From: Bacteroidales bacterium
GTDB lineage: Bacteria > Bacteroidota > Bacteroidia > Bacteroidales > FEN-979
Assembly (NCBI GenBank): GCA_023231005.1
Contig: JALNWG010000018.1
Location: forward strand, 2,549-66,548
DNA length: 64,000 nt
Direction of reading: 5' to 3'
Shown: in pieces, positions 38,208 through 61,555 of the stretch
Layout of the letters: each line of letters starts with the position of its first letter
How positions within the stretch are numbered: position 1 is the stretch's first letter
Notes under the pieces: generated by a model
Database searches by the model: none
Seen by the model: only the letters and a program-made list of their open reading frames with translations
What the model was told of the DNA's origin: nothing
Made by a program: the position numbers and the translations under genes

Positions 38208-38256
38208 ATAGATTTGCGATTTCAAATTTTACTTTATTCTTTGTAAAAAAAATCGA

Positions 38257-38319
38257 AATTTTTAATTTTTAATTTTTAATTTTTAATTCCTAATTCTTAA
38301 TTCCTAATTCCTAATTCTA
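38257..38319 (+). repeat. Heptanucleotide tandem array A: (AATTTTT)x4 AATTCCT AATTCTT AATTCCT AATTCCT AATTCTA
   Basis: Nine contiguous 7-bp units read directly from the sequence. The array ends 4 nt before the moaC ATG (38324). The + strand is G-free over 38256-38325. Confidence 0.95.
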
Positions 38320-38323
38320 AATC

Positions 38324-38776
38324 ATGTCCAAATTATCCCACGTTAGTGATTCCGGTAAAGCCAATATGGTAGATGTTGGGGCTAAGTCCGTACAATTACG
38401 AACTGCCAGAGCCTGTGGAATGATCCGGATGAATCCGGAAACCGTGGCTTTGATCCGCGAAAATAAAATGAAAAAGGGCGACGTTCTAACGGTTGCCGAG
38501 ATTGCCGGAATCCAGGGGGGCAAACGAACCAGCGATTTGATTCCACTCTGTCATCCCCTGCTGATCACAAAAATGGAGGTACATGCTTCCCTTTGTGAAA
38601 CCGGTGTAAAGATAGAAAGCATTGCCCGTTGCATCGGTCAAACCGGCATCGAAATGGAAGCGCTCACGGCTGTTTCCATTGCGCTGCTCACCATTTACGA
38701 TATGTGTAAAGCGGCGGATAAGGCAATGTTGATAGAAGGAATACAATTGGTGGAAAAGACAAAAGAAGATCTTTGA
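38324..38776 (+). CDS. moaC: Cyclic pyranopterin monophosphate synthase MoaC
   Basis: 150 aa with LSHVSDSGKANMVDVGAK, TVAEIAGIQGGKRTSDLIPLCHPL and TGIEMEALTAVSIALLTIYDMCKA motifs. Confidence 0.95.
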   Translation: MSKLSHVSDSGKANMVDVGAKSVQLRTARACGMIRMNPETVALIRENKMKKGDVLTVAEIAGIQGGKRTSDLIPLCHPLLITKMEVHASLCETGVKIESIARCIGQTGIEMEALTAVSIALLTIYDMCKAADKAMLIEGIQLVEKTKEDL

Positions 38777-38816
38777 AAAGAGATAACATAACACTCAATT
38801 TCTATAACAAAAAACA

Positions 38817-39749
38817 ATGCAAGAGATTCAGGTTATTTCGGTCAATATTTCGGAGAAAAAGAGAACGGCTAAGCGTCCGGTTAATCAGATAGAAATTACC
38901 CACAACGGCATTTTGGGGGATGCCCATGCAGGCCCCTGGAACCGGCAGGTAAGTTTATTAGGAATGGAAAGCATCCGGAAATTTGAAAAGGAGGCCGGCA
39001 GGAGAATCCAACCAGGTGAATTTGCCGAAAACATCACCACAAACGGAGTTGAGTTGTGGAAATTACATCCCTTAGATCGATTCACCGCCGGGGACCTTGA
39101 ACTTGAAGTAACCCAGATTGGGAAAGAGTGCCATGGAGCCTCATGTGCCATTTTCAAAGAAGTAGGAAATTGCGTGATGCCCAAAGAGGGGATCTTTTGC
39201 AGGGTCTTGAGCCCGGGAACAGTAAAGTCGGGGATGAACCTGGAATTACATCCGAAAATATACCGGGTAATGATCATCACACTCAGCGACCGTGCCAGTT
39301 CCGGAGAATACGAAGACAAATCCGGCCCACGGATAAAAGAACTTCTGGAGACCCAATTGACAATTGAGAATTGTCAATTCTCAATTGTCAATTCTCTCAT
39401 TCCCGATGATCCTCATAAATTGGGGGACCTGCTCCATAAAGCGAAAGAGGAGTTGACCGATATTGTGATCACTACCGGAGGAACCGGGATCGGTCCCCGT
39501 GATTTCACCCCGGAGGTTGTAAAACCCTTGCTCGATAAAGAAATACCCGGAATTATGGAAGCAATCCGGATGAAATACGGACAGGAAAAAACCGCTGCAT
39601 TAGTCAGCCGCTCTGTAGCAGGAATTATGGGAAAATCCCTCCTGTTTACTTTACCAGGAAGTGTAAATGCAGTGAACGAATATATGGTTGAAATTTTCCG
39701 GTCGCTGAAACATCTAACCTATATGCTCCACGGATTAGATATACATTAA
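38817..39749 (+). CDS. MOSC domain fused to MogA/MoaB-type molybdopterin adenylyltransferase
   Basis: 310 aa. The N-terminal ~145 aa form a MOSC-like beta-barrel (..GILGDAHAGPWNRQVSLL..GEFAENITT..LEVTQIGKECH). The C-terminal MogA/MoaB domain has ITLSDRASSGEYEDKSGP, ITTGGTGIGPRDFTPEV and LPGSVNAV. Confidence 0.8.
   Translation: MQEIQVISVNISEKKRTAKRPVNQIEITHNGILGDAHAGPWNRQVSLLGMESIRKFEKEAGRRIQPGEFAENITTNGVELWKLHPLDRFTAGDLELEVTQIGKECHGASCAIFKEVGNCVMPKEGIFCRVLSPGTVKSGMNLELHPKIYRVMIITLSDRASSGEYEDKSGPRIKELLETQLTIENCQFSIVNSLIPDDPHKLGDLLHKAKEELTDIVITTGGTGIGPRDFTPEVVKPLLDKEIPGIMEAIRMKYGQEKTAALVSRSVAGIMGKSLLFTLPGSVNAVNEYMVEIFRSLKHLTYMLHGLDIH
39354..39395. repeat. In-frame coding heptamer array (CAATTGA CAATTGA GAATTGT CAATTCT CAATTGT CAATTCT) containing a perfect 39-bp palindrome (39355-39393)
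   Basis: I checked base by base. Arms 39355-39373 and 39375-39393 are perfectly complementary around T39374. The 42 bp encode QLTIENCQFSIVNS within the MogA-like domain. Confidence 0.95.
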
Positions 39750-39763
39750 AAAATCAGCAATGA

Positions 39764-39812
39764 AATTTTTAATTTTTAATTTTTAATTCTTAATTCCTAA
39801 TTCCTAACTCTA
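39764..39812 (+). repeat. Heptanucleotide tandem array B: (AATTTTT)x3 AATTCTT AATTCCT AATTCCT AACTCTA
   Basis: Seven contiguous units lie between the MOSC-MogA stop (39749) and the 3' end of tRNA-Leu (39817). The architecture matches array A. Confidence 0.95.
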
Positions 39813-39816
39813 TCAG

Positions 39817-39901
39817 TACCCCGGGCGGGACTTGAACCCGCACGACCGCAATGGTCACAGGATTTTAAGTCCTGCGTGTCTACCAGTTCCACCACCAGGG
39901 C
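39817..39901 (-). tRNA. tRNA-Leu (anticodon TAA), class II with long variable arm
   Basis: Reverse complement: GCCCTGG TG GTGG AACTGGTAGA CACG CAGGA CTTAAAA TCCTG TGACCATTGCGGTCGT GCGGG TTCAAGT CCCGC CCGGGGT A. The cloverleaf folds by hand. Acceptor pairs 1-72 and 5-68 are G-U wobbles. No CCA is encoded. Confidence 0.8.
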
Positions 39902-39910
39902 AGCTTCTGA

Positions 39911-39939
39911 TTAAAAAACCCTCGGGTAGAAGAGGGTTT
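39911..39939 (-). terminator. Hairpin + T-run between tRNA-Gly and tRNA-Leu
   Basis: On the minus strand the stem AAACCCTC/GAGGGTTT (8 bp, 8-nt loop) runs into TTTTTT. Confidence 0.5.
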
Positions 39940-39945
39940 CCTTTG

Positions 39946-40018
<73 letters not shown>

Positions 40019-40061
40019 AGTTAAAATTTGAGGTGCAAAGGTAAAACAATTTTCAATTCTC

Positions 40062-42665
40062 CTACTTTTTTTGAAGCAATTTTTTAATCTCATTTAATTT
40101 CATCAACGCCTCAACCGGGGTCAGGGTATTTATCTCCGTATTTAAAATATCTTCTTTGATCTGCTGCAGCAATGGATCATCAAGCTGGATGAAACTCAGT
40201 TGATATCCACCATCCGCTTTCCCCTTTCCAATCCCCTCTGTTTCATGCGACGCTTCCAACTGACTAAGGATCTCCTTTGCCCGTTCCAGAACAGAAGAGG
40301 GCATACCGGCTATTTTAGCTACATGGATGCCAAAGCTGTGTTCGCTTCCACCAGGAAGAAGTTTCCTTAAAAAAATGACTTTGTTCTGAATTTCCCTGAC
40401 GGAAATATGATAATTTTTGATTCGTGGCAAGCGGGTTGCCATCTCATTGAGTTCATGATAGTGAGTGGCAAAGAGTACCTTGGGCCGGAACAACGGATGC
40501 TGATGCAGAAACTCCGCTATCGCCCAGGCAATGCTGATGCCATCGTAGGTACTGGTTCCGCGTCCGATCTCATCGAGCAGAATCAGGCTACGGCTGGAAA
40601 CATTATTCAGAATGCTCGCCGTTTCGTTCATCTCCACCATGAAAGTAGATTCACCGGAAGAGATGTTATCGGAAGCCCCTACCCGCGTAAATATCTTGTC
40701 GGTAATTCCGAGCGTGGCCGATTCGGCTGGAATAAAGCTCCCCATCTGGGCCATCAATACAATCAGAGCCGTTTGTCGCAACAAAGCCGACTTCCCCGAC
40801 ATGTTCGGCCCGGTCAACATGATGATCTGCTGATTGGTATCGTCAAGATGAACATCATTGGCAATATACGATTCCCCCGGCTTCATCTGTTGCTCTATTA
40901 CCGGATGACGACCATTGCGGATATCAATCACATACGTTTCATTCAGAACTGGCCGTACATAATTGAATTTTACGGCATTAATGGAAAAAGCAACCAGCAC
41001 ATCCAGTCGCGCTATCATCGTGGCATCGAGTTGTATCGGAACAATAAAATCTGCTAAAAAGAGGATCAGATCATTATATATCTTCATTTCGATCTCCTGG
41101 ATCTTCTCTTCCGCATGAAGGATCTTTTCTTCATAAGCCTTCAGTTCCTCCGTGATATACCGTTCGGCATTGACTAAGGTTTGTTTGCGGTTCCATTCGG
41201 GAGGAACCTTATCTTTATGAGCATTGGTCACCTCAAGGTAATAACCAAAAACATTGGTATAGCCTATTTTCAGTGAACTGATCCCGGTCCGTTCCATCTC
41301 CCGCTGCTGGATCTGAACAAGGTAATCCTTCCCCGAAAAAGCAATTTTCCGTAAATCGTCCAATTCCGGATCAACACCATCGCGGATAATATTTCCTTTG
41401 ATGGCCAATGCCGGGGGATCGGGCTGTATTTCATGATCGATGCGTTCACGAACCAGCTTGCAGATGTTCAATTGCTCGCCGATTTTCACAAGTCCCTCAT
41501 TACCTGATGTTCCGCAGATACCTTTCACGGCTTCGATGGCATCAAGGGCCTTTTTCAGATAGATCATTTCCCGGGGATTGACCCTGGCCACAGCCACTTT
41601 TGAAATGAGCCGTTCAAGGTCGCCGATCTGGTGAAATTGATGACACAGCAGTTCGGTAGTTTCCGGGTGAAGCTTGAAATATTCAACTGCATCCAGTCGC
41701 TCTTCGATGGGCTTACGGTTTTTCAGCGGGAGGATAATCCAGCGTCGCAGTTGCCTCGATCCCATTGGAGAAATCGTCTGGTCCAACACCTCCATCAACG
41801 TTTTTGCATTATCGTTTACGGAGTTCAGCAGTTCCAGATTCCGGATGGTAAACCGGTCCAGCCAAACATAGTTATCTTCTTCAATCCGGCTGAGTTTGCA
41901 GATATGCCGAACCTTGTCGTGTTGTGTTTCGGCGAGATAATGTAAGGCAGCACCCGCGGCAATCACGCCCATCTCCTGATTCTCAACCCCGAAACCCTTC
42001 AGCGAAGCGGTACCAAATTGCTTCAGTAGAAGTTCGTGCGAGAAATCAAGGGTAAAAACCCAATCTTCAAAAGTATTGATATAAAATTTATTGCCAAACA
42101 ACTCTAAAAACTGCTGACGTTTATTTTTCTGAATGATCACTTCGCTGGGCCGGAAACTCTGAATCAGCTTATCAATATATTCAAGCGACCCCTGGGCCAG
42201 GTAAAATTCACCGGTCGAAATATCAAGAAAAGAGATCCCCGATATTTTATCCTGAAGATGAACTCCGGCCAAGTAATTATTCTCTTTCTGGTCAAGAATC
42301 TTGTCATGATACGAAACTCCGGGGGTGACCAGTTCTGTAACGCCGCGTTTCACAATGTTCTTTGTCAGTTTCGGATCTTCCAGTTGATCACAAATGGCAA
42401 CCCGTAAACCGGCTTTCACTAATTTGGGAAGATAGAGATCAAGAGAATGATACGGGAAACCGGCTAATTCTACGAATTTTGCTGACCCGTTGGCACGTCG
42501 GGTAAGGACAATCCCCAAAATATTGGAAGCCCGAATGGCATCTTCCCCAAATGTTTCATAGAAATCACCTACCCTGAAAAGCAGTACAGCATCGGGATAC
42601 TTTGCTTTTATGGCGTTGTATTGACGCATCAGCGGGGTCTCTGCTATTTCCGTTTGTTTTGCCAA
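40062..42665 (-). CDS. mutS: DNA mismatch repair protein MutS
   Basis: 867 aa with [34 protein letters not shown], Walker [11 protein letters not shown] and [14 protein letters not shown]. The start is TTG. Confidence 0.95.
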
Positions 42666-42673
42666 AAAATACC

Positions 42674-42708
42674 GGAATTAAGAATTTAGAATTAACAATG
42701 AATAATTT
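42674..42708 (-). repeat. Heptamer array C (minus-strand reading TAATTCT AAATTCT TAATTCC plus two degenerate units)
   Basis: The + strand reads GGAATTA AGAATTT AGAATTA ACAATGA ATAATTT. The array begins 9 nt upstream of the mutS TTG start. More degenerate units (e.g. the reverse complement of CTCATTC) follow to about 42735. Confidence 0.7.
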
Positions 42709-42743
42709 TTCAAAGTTAAGAATGAGTTGGAATTTGTTTTGAT

Positions 42744-42774
42744 TTTGTTGATAAGTCAGCAAAAAGTATCTTTG
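42744..42774 (+). promoter_or_regulatory. Candidate Bacteroidota sigma-A promoter for the SpoU-family gene
   Basis: TTTG (42744-42747), 19 nt, then TAtcTTTG (42767-42774). It lies about 65 nt upstream of the 42838 start. Confidence 0.5.
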
Positions 42775-42837
42775 CACGACAAATCCAACATACTAAAATA
42801 AAATCACTTATTCACTTAACTCTTAATCACTTCCATA

Positions 42838-43380
42838 TTGAAAAAATTGACGATGCCGGAATTGAACCGGTTGACAGTTGAAGAATATAAAGCTGCAGAG
42901 AAAACTCCGATTGTGATTGTTTTAGATAATATACGGAGCCAGCACAATATTGGTTCGGTGTTCCGGACGGCCGATGCATTTCGCTTAGAGGGGATCCTGT
43001 TGTGTGGAATAACCGCAACTCCTCCTCACCGGGAGATTCAGAAAACCGCCCTGGGAGCTACTGAATCGGTACCCTGGCAATATTTTGACAACACCATCGA
43101 TGCTTGTACAAAATTAATCAATGAGGGGTATCATCTTTTAGCTGTAGAACAAGTTACTGGGAGCATTCCGCTCTATGATTTTCAACCGGCAAAAGATCAA
43201 AAACTCGCAATCATTTTTGGAAATGAGGTATCGGGAGTAAGAGAAGATGCCTTGTCGATGGCAACCGGTTGTTTGGAAATTCCCCAGTTCGGAACTAAAC
43301 ATTCCTTTAATATTTCAGTATCCGCAGGGATCGTGATATGGGATATTTTTTCCAAACTCAATTACCAAAAAGTAAAATGA
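42838..43380 (+). CDS. TrmH/SpoU-family RNA methyltransferase (small, single-domain)
   Basis: 180 aa with LDNIRSQHNIGSVFRTADAF, IIFGNEVSGV and SFNISVSAGIVIWD. The start is either TTG 42838 or ATG 42853. Confidence 0.8.
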   Translation: MKKLTMPELNRLTVEEYKAAEKTPIVIVLDNIRSQHNIGSVFRTADAFRLEGILLCGITATPPHREIQKTALGATESVPWQYFDNTIDACTKLINEGYHLLAVEQVTGSIPLYDFQPAKDQKLAIIFGNEVSGVREDALSMATGCLEIPQFGTKHSFNISVSAGIVIWDIFSKLNYQKVK

Positions 43381-43560
43381 AACAATCTGATTTACATTGG
43401 TTTTTATTTTTTTATTTAAACTAATGTAACCCTTCGGTTCTTTTTTGCGTACAATTCTAAAATTTATATTTTTACATTGTTGATAAAATGGGTAATCAAT
43501 TATTTTAAAATGGTATAATAACCTTATAAATAATTTATATTTGTCAAATAAACCATTATA

Positions 43561-43593
43561 ATTGCTCGGAAATTCAATAATTAATTATATTTG
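43561..43593 (+). promoter_or_regulatory. Candidate promoter for the 848-aa outer-membrane/TPR protein gene
   Basis: aTTG (43561-43564), 21 nt, then TAtaTTTG (43586-43593). It lies 40 nt upstream of ATG 43634. A second identical TAtaTTTG sits at 43536-43543. Confidence 0.4.
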
Positions 43594-43633
43594 CTAATCA
43601 GTAAACATATTCAATAAACGAAAAATTAGAGGT

Positions 43634-46180: not shown

Positions 46181-46197
46181 TTTGTTTACTGATGCAG

Positions 46198-46233
46198 AAA
46201 AAAACCCGGCTATTACAGGCCGGGTTTTTTTTT
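46198..46233 (+). terminator. Rho-independent terminator
   Basis: An A-run is followed by the stem CCCGGC/GCCGGG (46205-46210 / 46219-46224), an 8-nt loop and a 9-T run. Confidence 0.7.
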
Positions 46234-46246
46234 CGATATTTGTACC

Positions 46247-46714
46247 ATGAAAGAAGTATTTCTCCTCCTTGGCTCCAATCGCGGTAACCGGCAACAATTA
46301 TTGAAACAAGCCCGTGAACTGCTCGCCGAAAAAGCCGGAACCATTTTAAAAATCAGCACAATCTATGAAACAACCCCCTGGGGCTTTGACGACGATACAC
46401 TTTTTTTAAACCAGGCCGTGGAAATAGATACCAACCTTGCACCCGACCAATTGTTGCAGGAACTCCTGTCCATCGAAAAACAACTCGGCCGGATTCGCCC
46501 ATCTGAAGCACATTACCAAGGCCGTACCATGGATATCGATATTCTGTTTTTCGGAAATCAACGTATTTTTACCGATTCCCTGATAATCCCCCACCCCCGG
46601 TTACACGAAAGATTTTTTGCATTACAACCCCTGGCGGAAATCGCCCCCGACTTTGTACATCCCATAATGCAAAAAGATATCAAAACACTGCTTAAAATGA
46701 TCATTAATTCCTAA
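46247..46714 (+). CDS. folK: 2-amino-4-hydroxy-6-hydroxymethyldihydropteridine diphosphokinase
   Basis: 155 aa with LLGSNRGNR, IYETTPWGF, RTMDIDILFF and IPHPRLHERFFALQPLAEI. The last two codons and the TAA stop lie inside heptamer array D. Confidence 0.9.
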   Translation: MKEVFLLLGSNRGNRQQLLKQARELLAEKAGTILKISTIYETTPWGFDDDTLFLNQAVEIDTNLAPDQLLQELLSIEKQLGRIRPSEAHYQGRTMDIDILFFGNQRIFTDSLIIPHPRLHERFFALQPLAEIAPDFVHPIMQKDIKTLLKMIINS

Positions 46715-46754
46715 TTCTTAATTCTTAATTCTTAATTCTTAATTCCTAATTCTT
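46706..46754 (+). repeat. Heptamer array D: AATTCCT (AATTCTT)x4 AATTCCT AATTCTT
   Basis: Seven contiguous units span exactly from the folK terminal codons and stop (46712-46714) to the TTG start (46753) of the next gene. The + strand is G-free over 46700-46754. Confidence 0.95.
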
Positions 46755-47382
46755 GTACAACTACATCGTAATAGAAGGCAATATCGGAGCAGGAAAGACA
46801 TCGCTGGCAACACAGATGGCCAAAGAACTTAACGCTTCTCTGATTCTCGAGCAATTTGAAGAGAACTCTTTTTTACCTAAATTTTATGAAGATCCACTCC
46901 GGTATTCATTTCCATTAGAACTCTCTTTTTTGGCCGACCGGTATCAGCAATTGAAAAATCATTTCAATAAACCCGATCTCTTTACCTCCTTCACCATTGC
47001 CGATTATTTCATCTTCAAATCGCTGATCTTCGCCAGCCGCAATCTTGAATCACTTGAATTCGGACTCTATGGAAAACTTTTCAACATCGTCTCTTCTGTC
47101 GTCCCCCGGCCCGAACTGATCGTCTACCTTTACCTCAACCTGGAAAATCTGAAGAAAAATATCGAAAAACGTGGCCGTCCTTATGAACAAAACATCAAGT
47201 TCGACTATCTCGATAAAATACAAACCGGGTATCTTGAATTTCTACGACAGCAACCCGACCTCCGCGTACTGCTAATCGATACCAACAACCTTGATTTTGT
47301 TGCCCATAATGAAGACTACCAATGGCTCAAAGAAGTGATCATGAAAGAATATCCGGTTGGAATGCACACCCTCACAAAATGA
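46753..47382 (+). CDS. Deoxynucleoside kinase family protein
   Basis: 209 aa with the P-loop IVIEGNIGAGKTSLA near the N-terminus and the dNK-like motifs ..LEQFEENSFLPKFY.., ..FLADRY.. and ..ERGRPYEQ. Only a TTG start is available. Confidence 0.8.
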   Translation: MYNYIVIEGNIGAGKTSLATQMAKELNASLILEQFEENSFLPKFYEDPLRYSFPLELSFLADRYQQLKNHFNKPDLFTSFTIADYFIFKSLIFASRNLESLEFGLYGKLFNIVSSVVPRPELIVYLYLNLENLKKNIEKRGRPYEQNIKFDYLDKIQTGYLEFLRQQPDLRVLLIDTNNLDFVAHNEDYQWLKEVIMKEYPVGMHTLTK

Positions 47383-47425
47383 TGCACTCACTTCGTTTGC
47401 CGATGGATTTCTTCCCTCCCTCCTC

Positions 47426-48067: not shown

Positions 48068-48207
48068 AAAAGCACCTTCGGCCTTTTTTTTTGCACAGGA
48101 AAATGTTCATATTTTATTGTCCTGATCAATAGATTCACTTCGTTCGATGATAAAACTGCAACCGATGGAATTATTTATATCTTTGTCCCATATCAAAATT
48201 CCGCTCC

Positions 48208-49968: not shown

Positions 49969-50062
49969 GAACTCCCGAATGGAACTGAAGTCAGTTCACT
50001 TTTGAGAAACATTGACAATTATCAACTGCTTTAACTAACAATTACAAATACCTCACAACAAT

Positions 50063-50097
50063 AAACCCCCTTCTCCTTGAAAGAGAAGGGGGTTTTT
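50063..50097. terminator. Bidirectional terminator between convergent sppA and PFOR genes
   Basis: A 10-bp perfect stem CCCCCTTCTC/GAGAAGGGGG (50066-50075 / 50083-50092) with a 7-nt loop is flanked by AAA on the left and TTTTT on the right. Confidence 0.7.
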
Positions 50098-50119
50098 GGA
50101 ATAAGGCCATTGTTGCTCC

Positions 50120-53650: not shown

Positions 53651-53735
53651 AATATATTGAAATTTAAGAAATTAGTTTCTCTGTTGTGAAATTACTAACA
53701 GTCGGCAAAAGTACAAAAAAATTCCGGAAAATTGC

Positions 53736-53770
53736 TATTCTTAATTCTTAATTCCTAATTCCTAATTGTT
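53736..53770 (+). repeat. Heptamer array E: (T)ATTCTT AATTCTT AATTCCT AATTCCT AATTGTT
   Basis: Five units lie in the divergent spacer between PFOR (start 53650) and mutS2 (ATG 53816). Confidence 0.85.
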
Positions 53771-53815
53771 TAATCGGTGATCGGCCATCTACCATCTTTT
53801 CCTTACCTTTGCTGT

Positions 53816-56167
53816 ATGATCTTCCCTTCAAACTTTGAACAAAAACTCGGTTTCGATGCCCTCCGGCAGTTGCTCAGAGCGTATTGTCTGAGTTCGCTGG
53901 GGAGAGAGAATGTAGATCTGATTTCCTTTTCAACCGATCCTGACGAGATTGAACAATGGCTGTCGGGAACTGCCGAGATGCGGCAAATTCTGGAGTTTGA
54001 GGAACATTTTCCGGCACAGGATTATTATGATATGATCCCTGCCCTTCTTGGTATCCGGATCCCTGGTTCTTATATGGAACCTGAACAACTGTCGGAATTG
54101 CGGCTCTCGTTGACTGCCATCTTGACTTTAATCGATTTCCTGAGTGAACGAACTAATAAATATCCGGTTCTTAACCGACTTCTTCAGCAAACAGAATTCA
54201 GAACCCAGCAAGTTCGTAATGTAGCGCTACCTGCCATTTGCCATCCGTCATCCGCCAATGAAGTATGTCCATCTATCATTGAACTTTTAGCTCGGCTTGA
54301 CAAAATCCTGAACGAAAAATCGGAGATTCGCGATTCGGCTTCGGTGGAATTACAAAGAATCAGGAAGGAAAAGGTTTCCATGCAAACTTCTGTAGAGCGA
54401 AAGGTTGTTCAGTGTTTTAACCAGGCTCGTAAAAGCGGCTGGGTACCCGAAGATGCGGATATCACGATACGAAATGGACGGTTGGTGATCCCGATGATCA
54501 GTACCCACAAGCGAAAAATTGCAGGGTTTGTCCATGATGAATCGGCTACCGGTCACACGGTATTTGTGGAACCAGCCGAGATCTTTGAGACCAATAATGA
54601 AATACGGGAACTTGAATATGCTGAACGCCGGGAAATTGTGAAGATCCTGGCCGCTTTTGCCACCCTGCTTCGCCCGGATATTGAATTGCTGATCCAGGCT
54701 TACCGGTTTCTCGGGAAGATAGACTTTATCCGGGCCAAAGGAAGATTGGCCATCAATACGGGAGGAAGAAAGCCCATGTTGTCTGCGAGTTCATCAAGCC
54801 TCCTTTGGCGCGGAGCCATCCATCCGCTTCTTTTTCTCAGTCATCAGAAACAAAAAAAAGAGATCGTTCCACTTGATATTGAATTACATCAAGAGCAACG
54901 GATCATCATCATTTCCGGACCGAATGCGGGGGGAAAATCGGTGTGCTTGAAAACAGTAGGATTGGTGCAGTATATGTACCAATGCGGACTTCTGCCACCG
55001 GTTAAAGAAGATTCGGAGTTTTGCATTTTTAAAAACATCTTCATCGATATCGGCGATGAGCAATCGATCGACAACGACCTCAGCACCTATACCTCCAAAT
55101 TGATCAACCTGAAATTTTTTCTTGAACACATTGATAACCATTCCTTATTTTTGATCGATGAACTGGGAACCGGCACCGATCCTTCCCTGGGAGGTGCCAT
55201 TGCCGAAGCAACCCTCGAATCGCTCAACGAAAAAGGGGCTTTCGGAGTCGTCACAACCCATTATTCCAATTTGAAACTCCTGGCCGGCCGGCTATCCGGA
55301 ATTGTAAATGGTGCCATGCTTTTCGACCTGAAGAAATTAAAACCATTATACCAGTTGAAAACCGGAAAACCGGGAAGTTCTTTTGCTCTGGAAATCGCCC
55401 ATGAAATTGGGTTTCCGGAGGATGTATTACAAATTGCGCGGGAAAAAACCGGGAAAAGTCAGCTCGATTTCGACCGTGAACTTCAAAACCTGGATGTTGA
55501 AAAAATAGAGATCAAACAAAAATCAACGGAATTAAAAATTGCCGATGACTTTTTATCTGAATTAATCAGGAAATATGAAAAGCTAACTTCAGATCTCGAA
55601 TCCAGGAAAAAAGAAATCCTGGAAAATGCCCGTGAAGAGGCTCGTGAATTACTGTCACAGTCGAATAAAGTCATTGAAAAAACCATCCGGGAGATCCGCG
55701 AAGCCCAGGCAGAAAAAACCCAAACCAAAGCAGCACGACAAAACCTTTCGACTCTCAAAACCGAGCTGGAAGAAAAAAACAAATCCGGCAGCCCAGCCTC
55801 GCCGGCAGGCAAGCAACATCTGTTATCCAAAGTGGAGCAACCCATCCGTGAACGAAGCGAACCAATCGGTCGCCGTATGCTCAGGTCGCAGGTCTACCCT
55901 GACTTTCAGCAAAAAGTCGAGAATTTTACGTTCACTTTGGATCTGAGAGGAAAACGGGTAGATGAGGCGCAGATGATGTTGCAACGATATATCGATGATG
56001 CCATTTTATTATCGATCCATGAAGTAAATATTTTACATGGAAAAGGAAATGGCGTATTGCGACAAGTAACCCGCGATTACCTGCGTTTGCAAAAAGAGGT
56101 GAAAACAGCGCGGGATGCTGCATTGGAACAAGGTGGTGCCGGAATTACCGTAGTAACTTTCAGATAA
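53816..56167 (+). CDS. mutS2: Endonuclease MutS2 (MutS-II ATPase + C-terminal Smr domain)
   Basis: The conserved N-terminus MIFPSNFEQKLGFD starts at ATG 53816; the track start GTG 53777 adds 13 non-conserved residues. It has Walker A SGPNAGGKS and LIDELGTGTDP. The Smr domain is LDLRGKRVDEA..ILHGKGNGVLR. Confidence 0.9.
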   Translation: MIFPSNFEQKLGFDALRQLLRAYCLSSLGRENVDLISFSTDPDEIEQWLSGTAEMRQILEFEEHFPAQDYYDMIPALLGIRIPGSYMEPEQLSELRLSLTAILTLIDFLSERTNKYPVLNRLLQQTEFRTQQVRNVALPAICHPSSANEVCPSIIELLARLDKILNEKSEIRDSASVELQRIRKEKVSMQTSVERKVVQCFNQARKSGWVPEDADITIRNGRLVIPMISTHKRKIAGFVHDESATGHTVFVEPAEIFETNNEIRELEYAERREIVKILAAFATLLRPDIELLIQAYRFLGKIDFIRAKGRLAINTGGRKPMLSASSSSLLWRGAIHPLLFLSHQKQKKEIVPLDIELHQEQRIIIISGPNAGGKSVCLKTVGLVQYMYQCGLLPPVKEDSEFCIFKNIFIDIGDEQSIDNDLSTYTSKLINLKFFLEHIDNHSLFLIDELGTGTDPSLGGAIAEATLESLNEKGAFGVVTTHYSNLKLLAGRLSGIVNGAMLFDLKKLKPLYQLKTGKPGSSFALEIAHEIGFPEDVLQIAREKTGKSQLDFDRELQNLDVEKIEIKQKSTELKIADDFLSELIRKYEKLTSDLESRKKEILENAREEARELLSQSNKVIEKTIREIREAQAEKTQTKAARQNLSTLKTELEEKNKSGSPASPAGKQHLLSKVEQPIRERSEPIGRRMLRSQVYPDFQQKVENFTFTLDLRGKRVDEAQMMLQRYIDDAILLSIHEVNILHGKGNGVLRQVTRDYLRLQKEVKTARDAALEQGGAGITVVTFR

Positions 56168-56259
56168 AATGAGTATTATCGAAATGATAAAACATTTGTT
56201 TTGTTATATTTTTTTACTTTTACAAAAAATAAATTGCAAACCTTTTAATCCTGGATTTT

Positions 56260-56688
56260 ATGAAATCTATTAAATTCAATGCATCCGAGCTCGAATTTTT
56301 GAAAAACCATTATGAGCTGGAATTGGTTGATGCCGAAAATTATATCGGTGAAATAAAAAATATATTAAAAAAATTAGGTGTCTCTGAAAAGAACATCCCT
56401 GAAACGACTACTCAAAAACCGGTCGATAAACAAAAAAAAGGAAAACGCGGCAGACCTAAAAAAGTAATTGAGGAAATAATTGTTGATCCGGCAATGGAAC
56501 CCGAAAAAAAAGCAAAACGGGGAAGAAAACCAAAATTAGAAAAACCAGTCCTTGAAAACAAAGCAGAAAAGAAACCCTTTAAAAAAAGAGGGAAAAGAGC
56601 AGCAACCAAGGTCTTCAAAACAACGCCTAATAAAGCTGCAATGAAATCTCTTGTAACTCCCGTTGTAGAATCCGTCCCAATCATCTAA
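56260..56688 (+). CDS. Lys-rich small protein with AT-hook motifs (histone-H1-like tail)
   Basis: 142 aa. An N-terminal ~45-aa helical region is followed by a basic tail containing GKRGRPKK (canonical R-G-R-P AT-hook core), KRGRKPK and KKRGKR. Confidence 0.5.
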   Translation: MKSIKFNASELEFLKNHYELELVDAENYIGEIKNILKKLGVSEKNIPETTTQKPVDKQKKGKRGRPKKVIEEIIVDPAMEPEKKAKRGRKPKLEKPVLENKAEKKPFKKRGKRAATKVFKTTPNKAAMKSLVTPVVESVPII

Positions 56689-56808
56689 GATTCTTTTTCC
56701 ATTCGAATCAAAAGAATGATTGTATTCCTCCTGCTTATCTATGCCAGATAGCAGACAGGTAGGGAAATAGTATCAGGATCATCGCAATAAATCATTTTTT
56801 TTCAACCC

Positions 56809-56839
56809 TTTGGAATTTCCAGGAAAGGTTGTATCTTTG
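56809..56839 (+). promoter_or_regulatory. Candidate sigma-A promoter of rpsT
   Basis: TTTG (56809-56812), 19 nt, then TAtcTTTG (56832-56839). It lies 28 nt upstream of ATG 56868 and is a full consensus match. Confidence 0.55.
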
Positions 56840-56867
56840 CACCCCAATTTGAAAATTATTTAACAAC

Positions 56868-57113
56868 ATGGCTAACCATATCAGCGCAAAAAAACGCATC
56901 CGTAGTACCAAAACCAAACGTACCCAAAACCGCTATCAGGGCCGCACCGTTCGTAATGCCGTGAAGAAATTACGCGAAACCGAAGAAAAAGAGACTGTTG
57001 TGAAAGATCTTCCCAAAGTTATCTCCCAGATCGACAAGCTGGCCAAGAAAAGCGTCATCCACAAAAATAAAGCAGCTAACCTGAAGAGTAAGCTGATGAA
57101 AAAAGCAAAATAA
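56868..57113 (+). CDS. rpsT: 30S ribosomal protein S20
   Basis: 81 aa. [23 protein letters not shown].. and ..IHKNKAANLKSKL are typical of S20. Confidence 0.9.
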   Translation: MANHISAKKRIRSTKTKRTQNRYQGRTVRNAVKKLRETEEKETVVKDLPKVISQIDKLAKKSVIHKNKAANLKSKLMKKAK

Positions 57114-58082
57114 CTACTTCCTCCTGCGGAAACGCCAGGTTTTTAAGTTAGAAAGCTTTTGAATGTAAGTTGTCAAATGACGTTCCTTTTTCCGTGGATA
57201 GATATCTTCGATGTGAATTAATATCCCGGTTTCCTCTACATCCCCAAATTCATGATTGATTGCCGTACCAAACGTCCGCATCGTAGGCGATAGGTTCATA
57301 TATGCATTTACCAGCGGCGGAACATGTTCATTGTGCTTCCGGACTTCATGGATGAGAATCTTATAATTTTCCTCATAGGTCCGCTCAGAAAAGAAACCAG
57401 TGAGCGAAATATCCGGACTATCAATGTTCAGTCCATCCTTAGGAAGCATCAGCGTTTCCGTATCGGGGAAATATTTTCGTAAAAAACATAAAACCAAATC
57501 GCGCGCTTCCCGGTTATATTCGGGATACATCGTCATCTTCCCAAAGAAATATTTAACATCCGGAATCTCAATGATCATGGCCCCCAACCCATCCCACAAA
57601 TTGTCTAAGGAATACATCCCCTTGCGAAAATTTATTGTTGGCTGATAATTGGGCTGAACAAACGACCGGCCCAATTCAATACTAATCGGGAGATAATCGC
57701 GGATAAACTTGTTGGAAAAATCAAACAATTCAGCAGTAGCGCTGTGTACACACCCATTTTGTGTACACACAATATCGCGCCCATGAATAAACCGATACCC
57801 CCCTGTGATCTCCTTCTCTATAGGGTTCCATACAATCAACTGATGAAAAGGCACCTCCATGGTGTCATATTCATCAATGTCGACCGATTTTCCGGTACCA
57901 CCACCGGCATCGCGAAATGTAATTTCCCGCAACCGACCAACTTCACGCATCAAATTGGGGGATTCATGTGCTGTAAAAACGAAGATCTTGTTGTGACCAT
58001 TATTGGTGTTGCGCAGAAACTTACTGTCGGTCAGCTCAGCTTCAACTAACAAAGGGTCAACCGGGGAAATGATCTCTTCCAT
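57114..58082 (-). CDS. GNAT-fold N-acyltransferase (OlsB/GlsB-like, N-acyl amino acid lipid synthesis)
   Basis: 322 aa. ..FVFTAHESPNLMREVGRLREITFRDAGGGTGKSVDIDEYD..HQLIVWNPIEKEITGGYRFI.. matches my memory of hemolysin-like/OlsB-type acyltransferases. It is paired with an acyltransferase gene on the opposite strand. Confidence 0.5.
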   Translation of the reverse strand: MEEIISPVDPLLVEAELTDSKFLRNTNNGHNKIFVFTAHESPNLMREVGRLREITFRDAGGGTGKSVDIDEYDTMEVPFHQLIVWNPIEKEITGGYRFIHGRDIVCTQNGCVHSATAELFDFSNKFIRDYLPISIELGRSFVQPNYQPTINFRKGMYSLDNLWDGLGAMIIEIPDVKYFFGKMTMYPEYNREARDLVLCFLRKYFPDTETLMLPKDGLNIDSPDISLTGFFSERTYEENYKILIHEVRKHNEHVPPLVNAYMNLSPTMRTFGTAINHEFGDVEETGILIHIEDIYPRKKERHLTTYIQKLSNLKTWRFRRRK

Positions 58083-58256
58083 ACAACTTAAAGTAACGAA
58101 TGACGAATAATATTTAAGATAACATCATACAAAGATATGCCCTTTCAATTTTTAATTAATAAATTTTTCAATATTAATTCTTAGCCAACGCTCCATTTCA
58201 CATTCCTCAATTTTAGCTAAGTTCTTTTCCTCATTCTAAATTCATATTTTTGCAGG

Positions 58257-59120
58257 ATGAATATTCCGGTTGGCAGTGAAATTCCCGAGCGATTGATCGA
58301 TATTGAAGCGCTTTTTGCTTCGAAAAACCCAAAATTACTCAAATTTATTCCACGGTTTGTCCTCTCCTATTTAAAGCGGATCACACACCAGGAGGAGATC
58401 AATGGGTACATTTACCGGCATCGTGATAAATCCGGTATTCCCTTCGTTGAAGCGATCCTCAAAGAATTTGGAGTGAATGTTGAAATTGTAGATGGGAAAA
58501 CCATCAACGGATCCCTCATTCCTGCAACCGGACGGTACATCATTGCGGCCAATCACCCGTTGGGCGGATTAGATGGGATGGCCCTGATGCAGGCGCTCGG
58601 AAGATTCCGGAACGACCTGGTTTTTCCAGTCAATGACCTCCTGATGTATATCCCCGAATTACAACCGCTCTTTATTCCCATCAACAAACACGGACGGAAT
58701 ACCGAAAATGCCCGCCGTATCGACGAAACCTTTGCCTCCGACAAAACCATCCTTTACTTCCCGGCAGGACTGTGCTCCAGAAAAGTGAAGAATACCATCA
58801 TCCGCGACCTTGAATGGAAAACCACCTTCATCAAAAAAGCTATAAAATATCAGCGGGATATTATTCCGGTTTATATCGGCGGACGGAATTCCGATTGGTT
58901 TTATAATCTTTCAAACTGGCGGAAACGCTTTGGAATCAAAGCAAATATCGAGATGCTTTTCCTGGTCGATGAAATGGTTAAACAACTGGATAAAACCATC
59001 ACCCTCGTAGTAGGCGATCCCATCCATTATGCAACCTTCGATAAATCCAAAACCCAAGCCGAATGGGCAGAATGGACTAAAATGCAGGTATATAAACTGG
59101 AATCAAAAAATCATTCCTAA
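58257..59120 (+). CDS. Lysophospholipid/PlsC-family O-acyltransferase (GlsA/OlsA-like)
   Basis: 287 aa with the acyltransferase block IIAANHPLGGLDG, and FPAGLCSR downstream. The stop TAA (59118-59120) lies inside heptamer array F. Confidence 0.55.
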   Translation: MNIPVGSEIPERLIDIEALFASKNPKLLKFIPRFVLSYLKRITHQEEINGYIYRHRDKSGIPFVEAILKEFGVNVEIVDGKTINGSLIPATGRYIIAANHPLGGLDGMALMQALGRFRNDLVFPVNDLLMYIPELQPLFIPINKHGRNTENARRIDETFASDKTILYFPAGLCSRKVKNTIIRDLEWKTTFIKKAIKYQRDIIPVYIGGRNSDWFYNLSNWRKRFGIKANIEMLFLVDEMVKQLDKTITLVVGDPIHYATFDKSKTQAEWAEWTKMQVYKLESKNHS

Positions 59121-59168
59121 CTCCTAACTCCTAACTCCTAATTCCTAACTCCTAATTCCTAATTCCTA
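59113..59168 (+). repeat. Heptamer array F: ATTCCTA (ACTCCTA)x3 ATTCCTA ACTCCTA ATTCCTA ATTCCTA
   Basis: Eight contiguous units fill the whole convergent gap and overlap the stop codons of both flanking ORFs (59118-59120 on + and 59159-59161 on -). The + strand is G-free over 59101-59171. Confidence 0.95.
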
Positions 59169-59506
59169 AATGAATGTAAAGCATTATACGCACCAGGGTC
59201 CAGTGCTATGAAGGCTTCCATCAATTTCAAATGAGTTGAAGGATCGGGGTTAACAAAAACCGCTCCCAACATTTCGCGAAAGCGCAACAATTCTTTTAAA
59301 AGAGTTGTAGCACGACTTCCTTCTATCGTTAAATCAGTCAATTCAAAAGCACGTTCCCACGCATGTTCAGCGTTCTCCAAATTCCCTTTCAACAACGCAT
59401 TTTGAGCCCGGTTCATCTCATTGGCAATCGATAAAATTTGTTGTGACCGGGGATAACCGTTCCATTTTTCGCTTGTCATGTTTTTTTGGTAGATCAGTGG
59501 GTACAT
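59159..59506 (-). CDS. Hypothetical helical protein (115 aa)
   Basis: The ORF is translationally coupled (TAATG) to the upstream 112-aa ORF. I recognise no family, though ..NALLKGNLENAEHAWERAFELTD.. looks TPR/helical-hairpin-like. Confidence 0.45.
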   Translation of the reverse strand: MYPLIYQKNMTSEKWNGYPRSQQILSIANEMNRAQNALLKGNLENAEHAWERAFELTDLTIEGSRATTLLKELLRFREMLGAVFVNPDPSTHLKLMEAFIALDPGAYNALHSFRN

Positions 59507-59844
59507 TATTTTAAAAGCTTTTGTACGATAAAACTGATCTTTTCCCGAATCCTGGTATCCATAATTTCCATGCCTCGATTTTCTTGAGAAGGCCGGATGT
59601 TTATAAACGATGTAAATTCAAGAAATTCATCATTTTCCTTTGATGGATATATATTCGCTCCCCATAAATTCTGCTGCAAGGAACCAGATTCTAAAAGCAT
59701 TTTTTCAAGATCAGCATGCATGTCACCATCAATAGCCAGAATTTCCCGCTCAATATCAACCACGATTTTCATCATCTCCGTGAAATCAACTTCCCGGTTT
59801 TCCCAAACCATTTTTAATAAAGCTGGTTCTGATATGATTTGCAT
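59506..59844 (-). CDS. Hypothetical protein (112 aa)
   Basis: The ORF has coding-like composition. It is possibly a DUF-type family (I vaguely recall DUF5674-like proteins of this size), but this is unverified. Confidence 0.45.
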   Translation of the reverse strand: MQIISEPALLKMVWENREVDFTEMMKIVVDIEREILAIDGDMHADLEKMLLESGSLQQNLWGANIYPSKENDEFLEFTSFINIRPSQENRGMEIMDTRIREKISFIVQKLLK

Positions 59845-60060
59845 TTTCTTTAAATTTTAGCCTGAACACCTCAACACTTGCACCCCTTCCTTGAGGAGAA
59901 GGGGCTGGACGATGAAGTATTTTTAAAATGCAAAGATAGTAATACATTGCAAAGATAGTGACTCGATGAATTACCTTGTATGACCAAAAATAGTACCTTT
60001 GTTTTGGACCTCAAACCCTTCAGCTTATAAAAATCTGGAAGATTTGATCAAAACAGTACC

Positions 60061-60708
60061 ATGGTTATCGAAAACATTGAATTTTTATGCAGCAGTCCGT
60101 CAATACGGGAATGTCCAAAACAGGAGCTCCCGGAGTTTGCATTTATCGGGCGCTCCAATGTCGGTAAATCTTCGCTTATCAATATGTTAGCTGGAAGAAA
60201 GGGGCTTGCTAAGATCTCCAGTACCCCGGGAAAAACCAGATTGATTAACCACTTCAAGATTAGCTCAGCCATCCTTGATCATAAAGAGTTAACAACCAAT
60301 AATTCCATCAATCACAAAGCAACCTGGTTTCTTGTCGATCTTCCGGGATATGGCTTTGCACAGCTTTCCAAGGCACAACGTGAAAAATTCGAAGGGGTGA
60401 TCAAAAATTATCTCGAAAAAAGGGAAAATCTGGCCCTGACTTTTGTGCTGATCGACTCCCGGCTGGAACCTCAACCCATCGATATCAATTTTCTGAACTG
60501 GCTTGGCGATCATGAAATCTCATTTGTGATCCTCTTCACCAAAACCGATAAACTTTCACAAACCCTGCTGGCAGCCAATTTAAACTCTTTTAAGAAAACG
60601 CTCGCCCTTTACTGGGCTGAACTTCCCCTGATCCTGGTTACCTCTTCGAAAACCCGTGCCGGTCGTGAAAATGTACTTGCAGAAATCGAAAAGGTATTAC
60701 ATTATTAA
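60061..60708 (+). CDS. engB: Ribosome biogenesis GTPase YihA/YsxC (EngB)
   Basis: 215 aa with G1 GRSNVGKSSLIN, G3 DLPGYG and G4 TKTDK. It carries an extra ~20 aa between TPGKTRLINHF and WFLVDLPGYG. Confidence 0.9.
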   Translation: MVIENIEFLCSSPSIRECPKQELPEFAFIGRSNVGKSSLINMLAGRKGLAKISSTPGKTRLINHFKISSAILDHKELTTNNSINHKATWFLVDLPGYGFAQLSKAQREKFEGVIKNYLEKRENLALTFVLIDSRLEPQPIDINFLNWLGDHEISFVILFTKTDKLSQTLLAANLNSFKKTLALYWAELPLILVTSSKTRAGRENVLAEIEKVLHY

Positions 60709-61092
60709 CCCTTGTTTCCGCAGAAGTGCCCGGTAAATCTTATAATCGAGCTTGGCCCGCTCAACAAACCGACGATACGTTGCTTCCCTGCCTTCGCGTA
60801 TAAACAAAAGATTTCCGTTGGTTGCTTTAAAGCGTGAAACCGGATCAACCCGGTTTAACAAGGTTACATCACAAAACACATCCGACACAATCTCAACCAG
60901 CACGGGAAAAATATGTTCCAATGCATCACAAGAACCCATTTCCGGTTCCACAAAGACCATTAATTCCGGGAAAATCATTCCCCCTATCTGATCTTCAGGT
61001 TCCATCCCGGTAAGTACAGCAAAATAAATGAAAGGACAAAGGTCTTCCAAGTCAGAAGCCAGTTTTTTAAAATCAATAGTCTTGGATTTCAT
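60697..61092 (-). CDS. Hypothetical protein (131 aa)
   Basis: An ORF downstream of the biotin-carrier gene. Its 3' end overlaps the engB 3' end by 12 nt. I recognise no motif. Confidence 0.4.
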   Translation of the reverse strand: MKSKTIDFKKLASDLEDLCPFIYFAVLTGMEPEDQIGGMIFPELMVFVEPEMGSCDALEHIFPVLVEIVSDVFCDVTLLNRVDPVSRFKATNGNLLFIREGREATYRRFVERAKLDYKIYRALLRKQGLIM

Positions 61093-61145
61093 AATAGCTT
61101 TTTCCTATCATTGACAGGAAAAAACAAAAAAAGGTTGCATCCTAA

Positions 61146-61463
61146 TTATTTCAATTCAACTAAGATATGATGTTTTGGCACTGTTTCTCCCTCCTTAACA
61201 TAAACCTTCTTAACCACTCCGGTTTTATATGCAAGCAAATGATTATCCATCTTCATGGCATGTAATACAACTAAGGTATCGCCTTTTTTTACCTTGGACC
61301 CATCTTTCACAAGGACTTTTATTATCGTTCCGGGAATAAAAGCCATCACCTTTCGCAAATCAGGCGCTTCATACACTTTGCGGTTGGCAAACTTCTTCGT
61401 TAATGTGGTTCGGAACGTGACCTCTTCATAAGGAAAATCGACAAACTGTATATTTTCTTCCAT
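61146..61463 (-). CDS. Small biotin carboxyl carrier protein (biotinyl domain only)
   Basis: 105 aa with IPGTIIKVLVKDGSKVKKGDTLVVLHAMKMDNHLLAYKTGVVKKVYVKEGETV, which includes the AMKM biotinylation motif. Confidence 0.8.
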   Translation of the reverse strand: MEENIQFVDFPYEEVTFRTTLTKKFANRKVYEAPDLRKVMAFIPGTIIKVLVKDGSKVKKGDTLVVLHAMKMDNHLLAYKTGVVKKVYVKEGETVPKHHILVELK

Positions 61464-61513
61464 AAAACAATCAAGTTAAAAAAACCAAAGAAAACATCCC
61501 AAAAATTTAATCT

Positions 61514-61555
61514 GTAATTTGTAATTTGTAATTCCTCATTCCTCATTCCTCATTA
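61514..61555 (+). repeat. Heptamer array G: GTAATTT GTAATTT GTAATTC CTCATTC CTCATTC CTCATTA
   Basis: Six contiguous units lie between the carboxyltransferase stop (overlapping 61553-61555) and the biotin-carrier gene start. This variant has different unit sequences. Confidence 0.9.

Follow-up and report, generated by a model that had tools for sequence, protein, structure and literature searches.

Heptanucleotide arrays facing coding boundaries in a Bacteroidales genome: simple sequence repeats and possible structure-free spacers

What are the short runs of 7-bp units that fill many gaps between genes in a 64,000-nucleotide stretch of a Bacteroidales genome (contig JALNWG010000018.1; the whole stretch is called here the window), and do they serve the genes they touch? 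A preliminary description had listed seven intergenic arrays and one copy inside a coding sequence, and had not recognized them as a described repeat family. Here, we argue that these arrays are heptanucleotide simple sequence repeats (SSRs) driven by slippage and conversion, tolerated between genes and probably exploited as inert, structure-free spacers of untranslated regions (UTRs), a reading to which we assign a probability of roughly 55%. Their identity as heptanucleotide SSRs in untranslated gaps, with turnover by unit slippage plus conversion, is well supported; the spacer function is what we infer.

The arrays themselves are borne out by Tandem Repeats Finder (TRF) and by our own self-match scan over periods 4 to 12, both run over the whole 64-kb window. 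TRF made period-7 calls at 38257-38322, 39354-39396, 39764-39811, 42675-42707, 46704-46754, 53737-53767, 59113-59169, and 61508-61554. In the self-match scan, 7 was the only period with matches, in 10 segments, and no period-7 segment appeared in 50 Markov-2 shuffles of the window, the kind of control that the preliminary description had proposed. Also in 761 kb of related DNA, array DNA is greatest for period 7 among periods 5 to 12. Head-to-tail units of 7 bp, in at least three copies and beyond chance, at dispersed and mostly non-coding loci, are the hallmarks of bacterial intergenic heptanucleotide SSRs (long SSRs, or LSSRs); the loci here are the seven intergenic arrays, one relic, and two arrays past the window end. 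The latter, of the same family and + polarity, lie at 16691-16741 and 17305-17374 of contig L127, which continues for 1.9 kb beyond the window; the second one ends at an ATG, and the contig stops soon after, possibly owing to such repeats.

Arrays take up 8% of the intergenic DNA of the window. The claimed absence of G from their + strand is confirmed as G-free runs of 31-71 nt, and five of the seven G-free runs of at least 50 nt in the window are arrays or the array relic. Stop codons in every frame, proposed as a further property, are found on both strands and in all three frames of six of the seven arrays, the array at 42674-42708 closing two frames out of three. The arrays are not inventions of an assembler, since one of them (array 6, below) is exactly reproduced in the independent Logan assembly L128. 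This contig and another one, L002, both from the same strain as the window (100%), terminate at arrays or at most about 55 nt from them, and the arrays thus matter in practice, because short-read assemblies break at them. The window sequence also lies within the 211-kb metagenome contig ERZ27247350 k141_1608832 of ENA, and the same species is represented by a metagenome-assembled genome (MAG), GCA_028707595.1, labelled Bacteroidales bacterium.

The feature that best organizes these arrays is their orientation. According to the preliminary description, six of the seven share one polarity regardless of the direction of the flanking genes, which is literally true and yet misleading: when the head of an array is defined as the 3' end of its G-poor strand, the head stands against a coding boundary in all of them. 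Two situations can be distinguished. At moaC, mutS, the deoxynucleoside kinase gene (dNK), and the relic preceding a SpoU-type methylase gene, the array is sense to the gene and ends about 0-9 nt before its start or overlaps it. At tRNA-Leu, a 115-aa open reading frame (ORF), and a carboxyltransferase gene, the array is purine-rich on the strand of the gene whose 3' end it touches. Arrays that abut starts or overlap stops, as first described, are confirmed at moaC, mutS, dNK, folK, the acyltransferase gene, the 115-aa ORF, and the carboxyltransferase gene.

Among the leader arrays, all delimited by TRF and by the sequence, array 1 (38257-38322, + strand) consists of four AATTTTT followed by five AATTCYT units, is G-free, and is sense to moaC, whose ATG (38324) lies a few nt downstream; a possible -7 box, TAGATTTG, is found at 38209, upstream of the array. 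Array 3 (42674-42708, - strand), made of AATTCTT-like units, is followed after about 8 nt by the TTG start of mutS (42665), so the one array of 'opposite polarity' also fits the rule. Array 4 (46704-46754, + strand), with seven AATTCYT units, occupies the entire folK-dNK gap: it contains the last two codons and the stop of folK (46712-46714), and the TTG start of dNK (46753) is the end of its last unit. Array 5 (53736-53770, + strand), with four to five ATTCYTA units, is sense and upstream of mutS2. It would be a leader within about 9 nt of the start only if mutS2 begins at the GTG at 53777, which follows it by 6 nt; if the gene begins at the ATG at 53816, the array lies upstream of the -7 box. 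This box, TACCTTTG (53804-53811), is followed by CTGT and the ATG, and thus stands 4 nt ahead of the start chosen by the gene caller (53804-53818), a layout that would imply a leaderless mRNA. The moaC gene of a related species, L131, is preceded by this same TAnnTTTG-N4-ATG layout (TATCTTTGACCTATG).

As for the arrays at gene ends, delimited in the same way, array 2 (39764-39812, + strand) has three AATTTTT units, one AATTCTT, two AATTCCT, and one AACTCTA. It begins 14 nt past the stop of the MOSC-MoaB gene, with its head at a distance of 4 nt from the tRNA-Leu(TAA) 3' end (gene at 39816-39901, - strand; ARAGORN and Rfam), and reads AGRAATT on the strand of that tRNA. The near-identical arrays 1 and 2 (GAAATTTTT..., then AATTCYT) flank, as direct repeats, the 1.44-kb moaC-MOSC/MoaB pair, and both sites are array-free in the relatives L126 and L130. 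Array 6 (59111-59172, + strand), with eight AACTCCT/AATTCCT units, fills the space between two convergent genes and runs over the stop codons of both, the acyltransferase gene (+, 59120) and the 115-aa ORF (-, 59159). Array 7 (61508-61556, + strand) has three GTAATTT and then three CCTCATT units; when read on the - strand (GAGGAAT...), it begins at the carboxyltransferase stop (61553-61555), and the array is located 50 nt upstream of the start of a biotin-lipoyl gene (61463).

The same rule holds well beyond the window. A scan for three consecutive AATTCYT units in one genome per species (596 Gb) returned at least 120 contigs, and the matches listed come from over 15 phyla, including Bacteroidota, Cyanobacteriota, Ignavibacteriota, Verrucomicrobiota, Bacillota, Patescibacteria, Spirochaetota, Chloroflexota, and Acidobacteriota, as well as Thioploca and others. 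By our own arithmetic, chance would account for about 2-20 matches; since the listed matches far exceed this number and span many phyla, the unit is neither lineage-specific nor new as a kind. In a Chloroflexia MAG (L054, 3034-5706), seven AATTCYT arrays alternate in orientation and recur about every 850 nt, an arrangement that looks like the tandem repetition of a short cassette with inverted flanking arrays.

Orientation was tested on 120 unrelated loci among these listed matches. Arrays that read AGRAATT on the gene strand have a median distance of 5 nt from the stop, and those in the opposite orientation one of 83 nt (p=4e-7); of the 67 arrays reading AGRAATT, 46 lie within 20 nt of the stop and 25 overlap it, often in such a way that the first TAG or TAA in the array is the stop itself. 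Sense arrays, in turn, are nearer to starts than antisense ones (p=0.012). With stringently defined arrays, the head is nearer than the tail in 33 versus 10 arrays of other units in these loci, and in 15 versus 2 in the window and its relatives. In 80 metagenome loci picked by homology to the MOSC protein, and not by their arrays, the count is 12 versus 4 (p=0.08), and there the rule is gone under a lenient definition (16 versus 23), which makes that set weak alone.

An orientation rule of this kind was reported by Rehm et al. in 2015 for G-rich heptamers and discussed in terms of G-quadruplexes (G4) (PMC4692102). In their formulation, the G-rich strand is the coding one after stops and the non-coding one before starts, as in all arrays of the window. 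However, the units found here (AGGAATT, AAGAATT, AGGAGTT) have at most GG, short of the G-tracts of at least three per unit that G4 formation involves. Since AATTCYT-type units cannot form G4, the rule is independent of these structures.

Would the polarity rather belong to the DNA, with the arrays acting as binding sites for a nucleoid or AT-hook protein or as a signal polar to the replication strand? The AATT cores and the position of most window arrays on the C-rich + strand would agree with this, as would the GC skew of the flanks, which is negative for the AATTCYT strand at 66 of 101 loci (p=0.003). This association is weak and, in loci of 8 kb, confounded with gene strand, for which we rejected replication-strand polarity. 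Furthermore, the orientation follows the adjacent coding boundary even in the inverted mutS array, and in sister species the slots in question contain GC-rich units unrelated to these; nothing points specifically to the binding of a nucleoid or AT-hook protein, and we consider a DNA-level element very improbable. A polar ageing of the arrays, from an old T-rich tail to a new C-rich head, was also considered and discarded: it is seen in arrays 1, 2, and 7 of the window, but 51 arrays from other genomes have no head-to-tail gradient of C content or degeneracy.

Contrary to the impression of a family not yet described, intergenic heptanucleotide SSRs are already known (PMC4692102, PMC4679880), and the arrays of the window are an AT-rich, non-G4 branch, of AATTCYT/AACTCCT type, of this functionally unexplained class. 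A close match are the repeats of Rehm et al., GGGAATC in Xanthomonas and GGGGAYT in Nostoc, in a work that also mentions the short tandemly repeated repetitive (STRR) sequences of Calothrix (PMC4692102). Both sets share 7-bp tandem units at many dispersed intergenic loci, the absence of a functional class among the adjacent genes, an orientation in which the G-rich strand is coding up to 50 bp after stops (or overlapping them) and non-coding up to 50 bp before starts, a length and sequence that vary among related species, and occasional inverted pairs. In addition, within some of the listed AATTCYT arrays, AATTCCC, which is complementary to GGGAATT, gradually gives way to AATTCCT. They differ in that the published G4/i-motif rationale is inapplicable to units with at most GG, in that the window arrays have 3-9 units with no preference for four and belong to a low-GC Bacteroidales host, and in that some of them can be placed inside 5'UTRs through conserved -7 boxes.

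A second relative is the TAACTGA heptamer, found just upstream of starts in Beggiatoaceae, Cyanobacteria, and five Bacteroidetes (MacGregor 2015, PMC4679880). These are likewise mostly intergenic direct heptamers, forward within a few nt upstream of starts, sharing gaps with other heptamers, scattered over a phylogeny that includes Bacteroidetes, Cyanobacteria, and Thioploca, and with an unexplained function. However, the unit is another one, without C/G skew, and is absent from the TRF output of the window; and whereas horizontal transfer was proposed for TAACTGA, AATTCYT occurs in over 15 phyla among the matches listed and sister species carry different units. Heptanucleotides were found by Mrazek in 2007 to be the commonest long SSR units in many prokaryotes, as related in PMC4679880. 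At least in such secondary accounts, LSSRs and STRRs resemble the present arrays in being heptamers, the most abundant long SSR class in many bacteria that are not host-adapted, intergenic and with a proposed origin by slippage; neither the AATTCYT unit nor a 5'UTR placement is described for them there. The STRR heptamers of heterocystous cyanobacteria reportedly go back to work by Mazel in 1990. Their units CCCCAGT, TTGGTCA, and CAACAGT do not occur among those of the window, which are AATTYYT, AACTCCT, and CTCATTC in a Bacteroidales host.

Repetitive extragenic palindromes and the mosaic elements built from them (REP/BIME), as well as transposable elements of the miniature inverted-repeat type (MITEs), were rejected as identities for the arrays. 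Their minimum free energy (MFE) is about 0 on either strand, their 120-nt flanks share no similarity within the window, and Rfam gives no match to them; a larger mobile element is rejected on the same grounds.

How do the arrays change? A close strain, L123, is 99.36% identical to the window over 21.3 kb, and only two indels separate them: one whole AATTTTT unit of array 1, missing in L123, and 10 bp at 49987. The latter is an insertion of AATCTCGTAA in L123, in the convergent gap between an S49 peptidase gene and the pyruvate:ferredoxin oxidoreductase (PFOR) gene, beside a strong bidirectional hairpin terminator (50063-50095). Thus, between these two strains, three of the four arrays keep their exact copy number across 0.64% divergence and one differs by one unit. 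Three substitutions fall in arrays, and each is a C/T exchange at position 6 of the unit: in L123, 39797 (array 2) has changed from C to T, and 46732 and 46739 (array 4) from T to C. Variation of length and sequence unit by unit between close relatives is also typical of LSSRs.

This pace bears on two alternatives. The first one, also raised in the preliminary description, is that of phase-variable contingency tracts, in which frequent changes of unit number would switch or grade expression. The length of the (ATCTTTC)n SSR in the 5'UTR of hmw1A/hmw2A of Haemophilus influenzae controls HMW1A expression (PMC12721329), and that SSR shares with the window the G-free heptamer array in a (here predicted) 5'UTR; the L130 SpoU leader even has ATCTTTT/ATCTCCT units. 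The whole-unit difference between strains would point in the same direction. However, hmw arrays have at least 11 units, are hypervariable, base-pair to an arm rich in G, undergo RNase III processing, and control an adhesin, whereas the window arrays are short, imperfect, of mixed units, mostly unchanged in length between the strains, and, with an MFE of about 0, devoid of such a hairpin partner. Nor are their neighbours surface, virulence, or restriction-modification genes, but moaC, mutS, dNK, folK, mutS2, the acyltransferase and carboxyltransferase genes, and tRNA-Leu. The gene set of the region (moaA-moaC-MOSC/MoaB, two tRNAs, mutS, the SpoU-type methylase gene, folK, dNK, PFOR, mutS2, rpsT, and the acyltransferase and carboxyltransferase genes) is an ordinary one, and the array-associated genes are housekeeping genes. 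Contingency tracts are, therefore, a weak proposal to which we give hardly any credence.

The second and main rival is pure neutrality, in which a lineage-specific 7-nt slippage fills permissive gaps and selection merely purges damage. We consider it a serious alternative, even if clearly less probable than the spacer reading, and the other rivals are less likely still. Within arrays, the substitution rate is not below that of other intergenic DNA (by our own count against L123, 3 in ~196 nt versus ~6 in 1100 nt), and Mrazek's polymerase-footprint account, as conveyed in PMC4679880 and PMC4692102, would explain the preference for 7 nt. The units differ between species, the genes touched are unrelated housekeeping genes, and, as will be seen, some relatives dispense with arrays. 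On the other hand, the orientation rule at starts and stops needs at least an orientation-dependent selection (see also PMC4692102), the copy number is kept in three arrays out of four, and slippage alone gives no account of the homogeneity of units within a genome.

The comparison with other species sharpens these points. In the MutS tree, L126 is the outgroup, L130 and L131 are sisters of the window, and L124, L125, and L129 form an array-poor clade. L126, L130, and L131 carry heptamer arrays in the same gaps as the window (SpoU, dNK, and often mutS and moaC); the mutS leader has an orthologous array in L126 and, in degenerate form, in L130. Each of these genomes has units of its own (ATCTYYT, TGACTAT, ATCCAGC/ATCTTGT, AACCCGT), with several unit families coexisting in L126 and in L131. 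Arrays make up 12-26% of the intergenic DNA in L126, L130, and L131, and 0% in L125 and L129. At such a density, shared slots are no proof of slot-specific selection. A metagenome scan with MOSC-MoaB returned no same-species contig, its best match being at 79%.

Some further observations concern the surroundings of mutS. The Logan contig SRR22315502_1056748 (L212) is 99.2% identical to the window from within mutS onward; its positions 1-506, with the 5' end of mutS and the region upstream, are unrelated and array-free, so this contig either is recombinant or was assembled as a chimera. L125 (13026-18267) and L129 (13213-19175) bear integrase-carrying islands immediately downstream of mutS, at the place taken in the window by tRNA-Gly and tRNA-Leu, so this site is likely to be a tRNA-targeted integration hotspot.

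The coding copy provides another view of array turnover. It consists of six heptamers of CAATTGA/CAATTCT type (39354-39396, + strand; TRF), 42 nt or 14 codons in the MOSC-MoaB gene, and aligns without gaps to Cnx1G/MogA and to three orthologues. This rules out an insertion and leaves a replacement. At this position, the orthologues have in common EFFxxRxLHHFIHY, and the window encodes TQLTIENCQFSIVN. Within the gene, no 42-nt block is less conserved than the copy (identity 0.24-0.38, versus a mean of 0.68-0.70), whose unit variants lack stop codons; the length is preserved. An array has thus overwritten 14 codons in frame with six units, and such a length-preserving overwrite means that arrays can replace sequence rather than merely insert into it. 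One could go further and propose that an active, templated process writes the arrays directionally up to the coding boundary, with the genome-specific unit as template. If true, this would explain at once the head-to-coding-sequence rule for any unit, the homogeneity of units within a genome, and the in-frame overwrite, even though we regard it as a long shot.

Where do the arrays stand in the transcripts? The best case is the divergent SpoU-mutS region, with two TAnnTTTG motifs of Bacteroidota type: the mutS -7 box TAACTTTG (42711-42718, - strand, from 42718) and the SpoU -7 box TATCTTTG (42767-42774, + strand), both conserved in five related species. In Flavobacterium, transcription start sites (TSSs) lie 4-5 nt after the -7 element (PMC6847099). 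With this spacing, the predicted mutS TSS falls at the first unit of array 3, which would be most of the mutS 5'UTR, and that of SpoU falls at the first base of a 61-nt G-free stretch (42779-42839, + strand) running towards the start at 42853. This stretch, AATCACT TATTCACT TAACTCT TAATCACT, keeps a 7/8-nt periodicity and reads as a decayed leader array, a relic whose slot is occupied by clean arrays in L126, L130, and L131. In L126, both the mutS and the SpoU leaders are clean arrays directly after the -7 boxes. For these two genes, the array would be essentially the whole 5'UTR, from predicted TSS to start. As a general rule this was rejected, and it is kept solely for mutS and SpoU; some leader arrays are intercistronic, as in folK-dNK.

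The physical properties of the arrays would suit such a position. The region from -50 to +15 of array-bearing genes has predicted folding energies of 0 to -2.7 kcal/mol, whereas 45 other genes average -7.8 (p=0.001). Being G-free, a leader of this type contains no ATG, GTG, or TTG, and no Bacteroidota promoter motif was found inside the arrays. Initiation in Bacteroidota is independent of Shine-Dalgarno sequences and tuned by local structure (PMC6847099). The idea of unstructured G-free leaders, advanced in the preliminary description, thus fits moaC, mutS, dNK, the SpoU relic, and probably mutS2 (sense, 0-9 nt from the start, MFE about 0), and at mutS and SpoU the arrays begin at the TSS predicted from conserved boxes; it falls short at gene ends, as discussed below. 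Unstructured leaders rich in AU or pyrimidines, such as the omega leader of tobacco mosaic virus or AU-rich leaders that bind ribosomal protein S1, act as translational enhancers. The likeness (G-poor, repeat-containing, structure-free, directly before the start) is one of working only; there is no homology, and an enhancer role of the window arrays is suggested by analogy alone.

Would the arrays instead be platforms for an RNA-binding protein, with one site per unit for a cold-shock protein with an oligonucleotide-binding (OB) fold, S1, or an RNA recognition motif (RRM)? In this case, they would mark a post-transcriptional regulon, the unit co-evolving with the protein. The strict 7-nt register with genome-specific units, the single-stranded state predicted for the arrays, and their location at the start codon speak in favour, as do MacGregor's proposal of binding for TAACTGA and the precedent of CspB, which binds heptamer repeats with one protein per heptamer (PMC4679880). 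Nevertheless, we find a binding platform unlikely, given that no candidate protein was identified, that a single genome (L126, L131) can have several different unit families, that the target genes have no theme, and that trailer arrays are read as the complement.

The convergent gaps at 39750-39815 and 59121-59158, both filled by arrays, raise still another alternative. No hairpin terminator was found in the gap at 39750-39815 nor in that of array 6, whose core (59121-59158) is entirely array with an MFE of 0, whereas other gaps have classic terminators, such as the one at 50063-50095. In their place, G-free, C-containing, unstructured RNA of 33-71 nt could act as a Rho utilization (rut)-like loading site or insulator: transcripts bound for a coding sequence would be open to Rho unless ribosomes engage, and read-through would be terminated in the hairpin-less gaps. 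The excess of C over G without structure is compatible with a candidate rut site, and leader and trailer arrays alike give the C-rich strand to transcripts entering a coding sequence. However, if the leaders of mutS, moaC, and dNK contained such a site, these housekeeping genes would be subject to attenuation, and typical rut sites are longer than the arrays; we consider this possibility quite remote. In other genomes, inverted heptamer pairs could form long hairpins at gene ends (L131, 12444-12479/12501-12529; L109, 877-908/987-1020 and 6766-6798/6884-6918; L126, 997-1035/1232-1270); Rehm et al. likewise met such pairs (PMC4692102).

Several observations weigh against the spacer reading. Among 13 leader arrays in sense orientation from Bacteroidota loci, only two have a canonical -7 box within 60 nt upstream, which is why the whole-5'UTR claim is confined to mutS and SpoU. 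A Kozak-like A at -3 is present at moaC only. L124, L125, and L129 have no need of arrays in the same gaps; the arrays are therefore dispensable. The reading does not explain the purine-rich preference of the trailer arrays, nor the homogeneity of unit families within a genome, nor the empty first part of the window: as first claimed, the initial 38 kb are array-free, with arrays in none of 15 gaps of at least 20 nt, versus 7 of 19 after that point (p ~0.009 by our own hypergeometric arithmetic). Finally, the transcription of the arrays, their TSSs, and their effect on translation are matters that we infer.

With these points in mind, the spacer reading that we favour can be put as follows. 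At the DNA level, arrays arise and turn over by unit-wise slippage plus conversion or overwriting, without conserved flanks and not as parts of a larger mobile element. On the gene strand, those before starts read as G-free AAUUCYU, and those after gene 3' ends as purine-rich AGRAAUU. With zero predicted structure, no start codons, closed frames, and no promoter motif, such a tract may behave as an inert spacer, and it is because of these properties that we consider the arrays tolerated and probably exploited. Structure-free spacers may suit the structure-sensitive initiation of Bacteroidota, and UTRs would slowly grow or shrink as units are gained or lost, which would amount to a weak tuning parameter and not to a switch.

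Heptamer SSRs have been known for decades, but what they do is still unexplained; the window represents a clean, low-GC case of them. What it adds is an orientation rule without G4 capacity, arrays inside defined, although predicted, 5'UTRs, sister species that fill the same gaps with different units, and one in-frame coding overwrite. The question thus becomes a testable one: whether there is selection for structure-free, start-codon-free UTRs in Bacteroidota, with their Shine-Dalgarno-independent initiation, or a polar mechanism acting at the DNA level.

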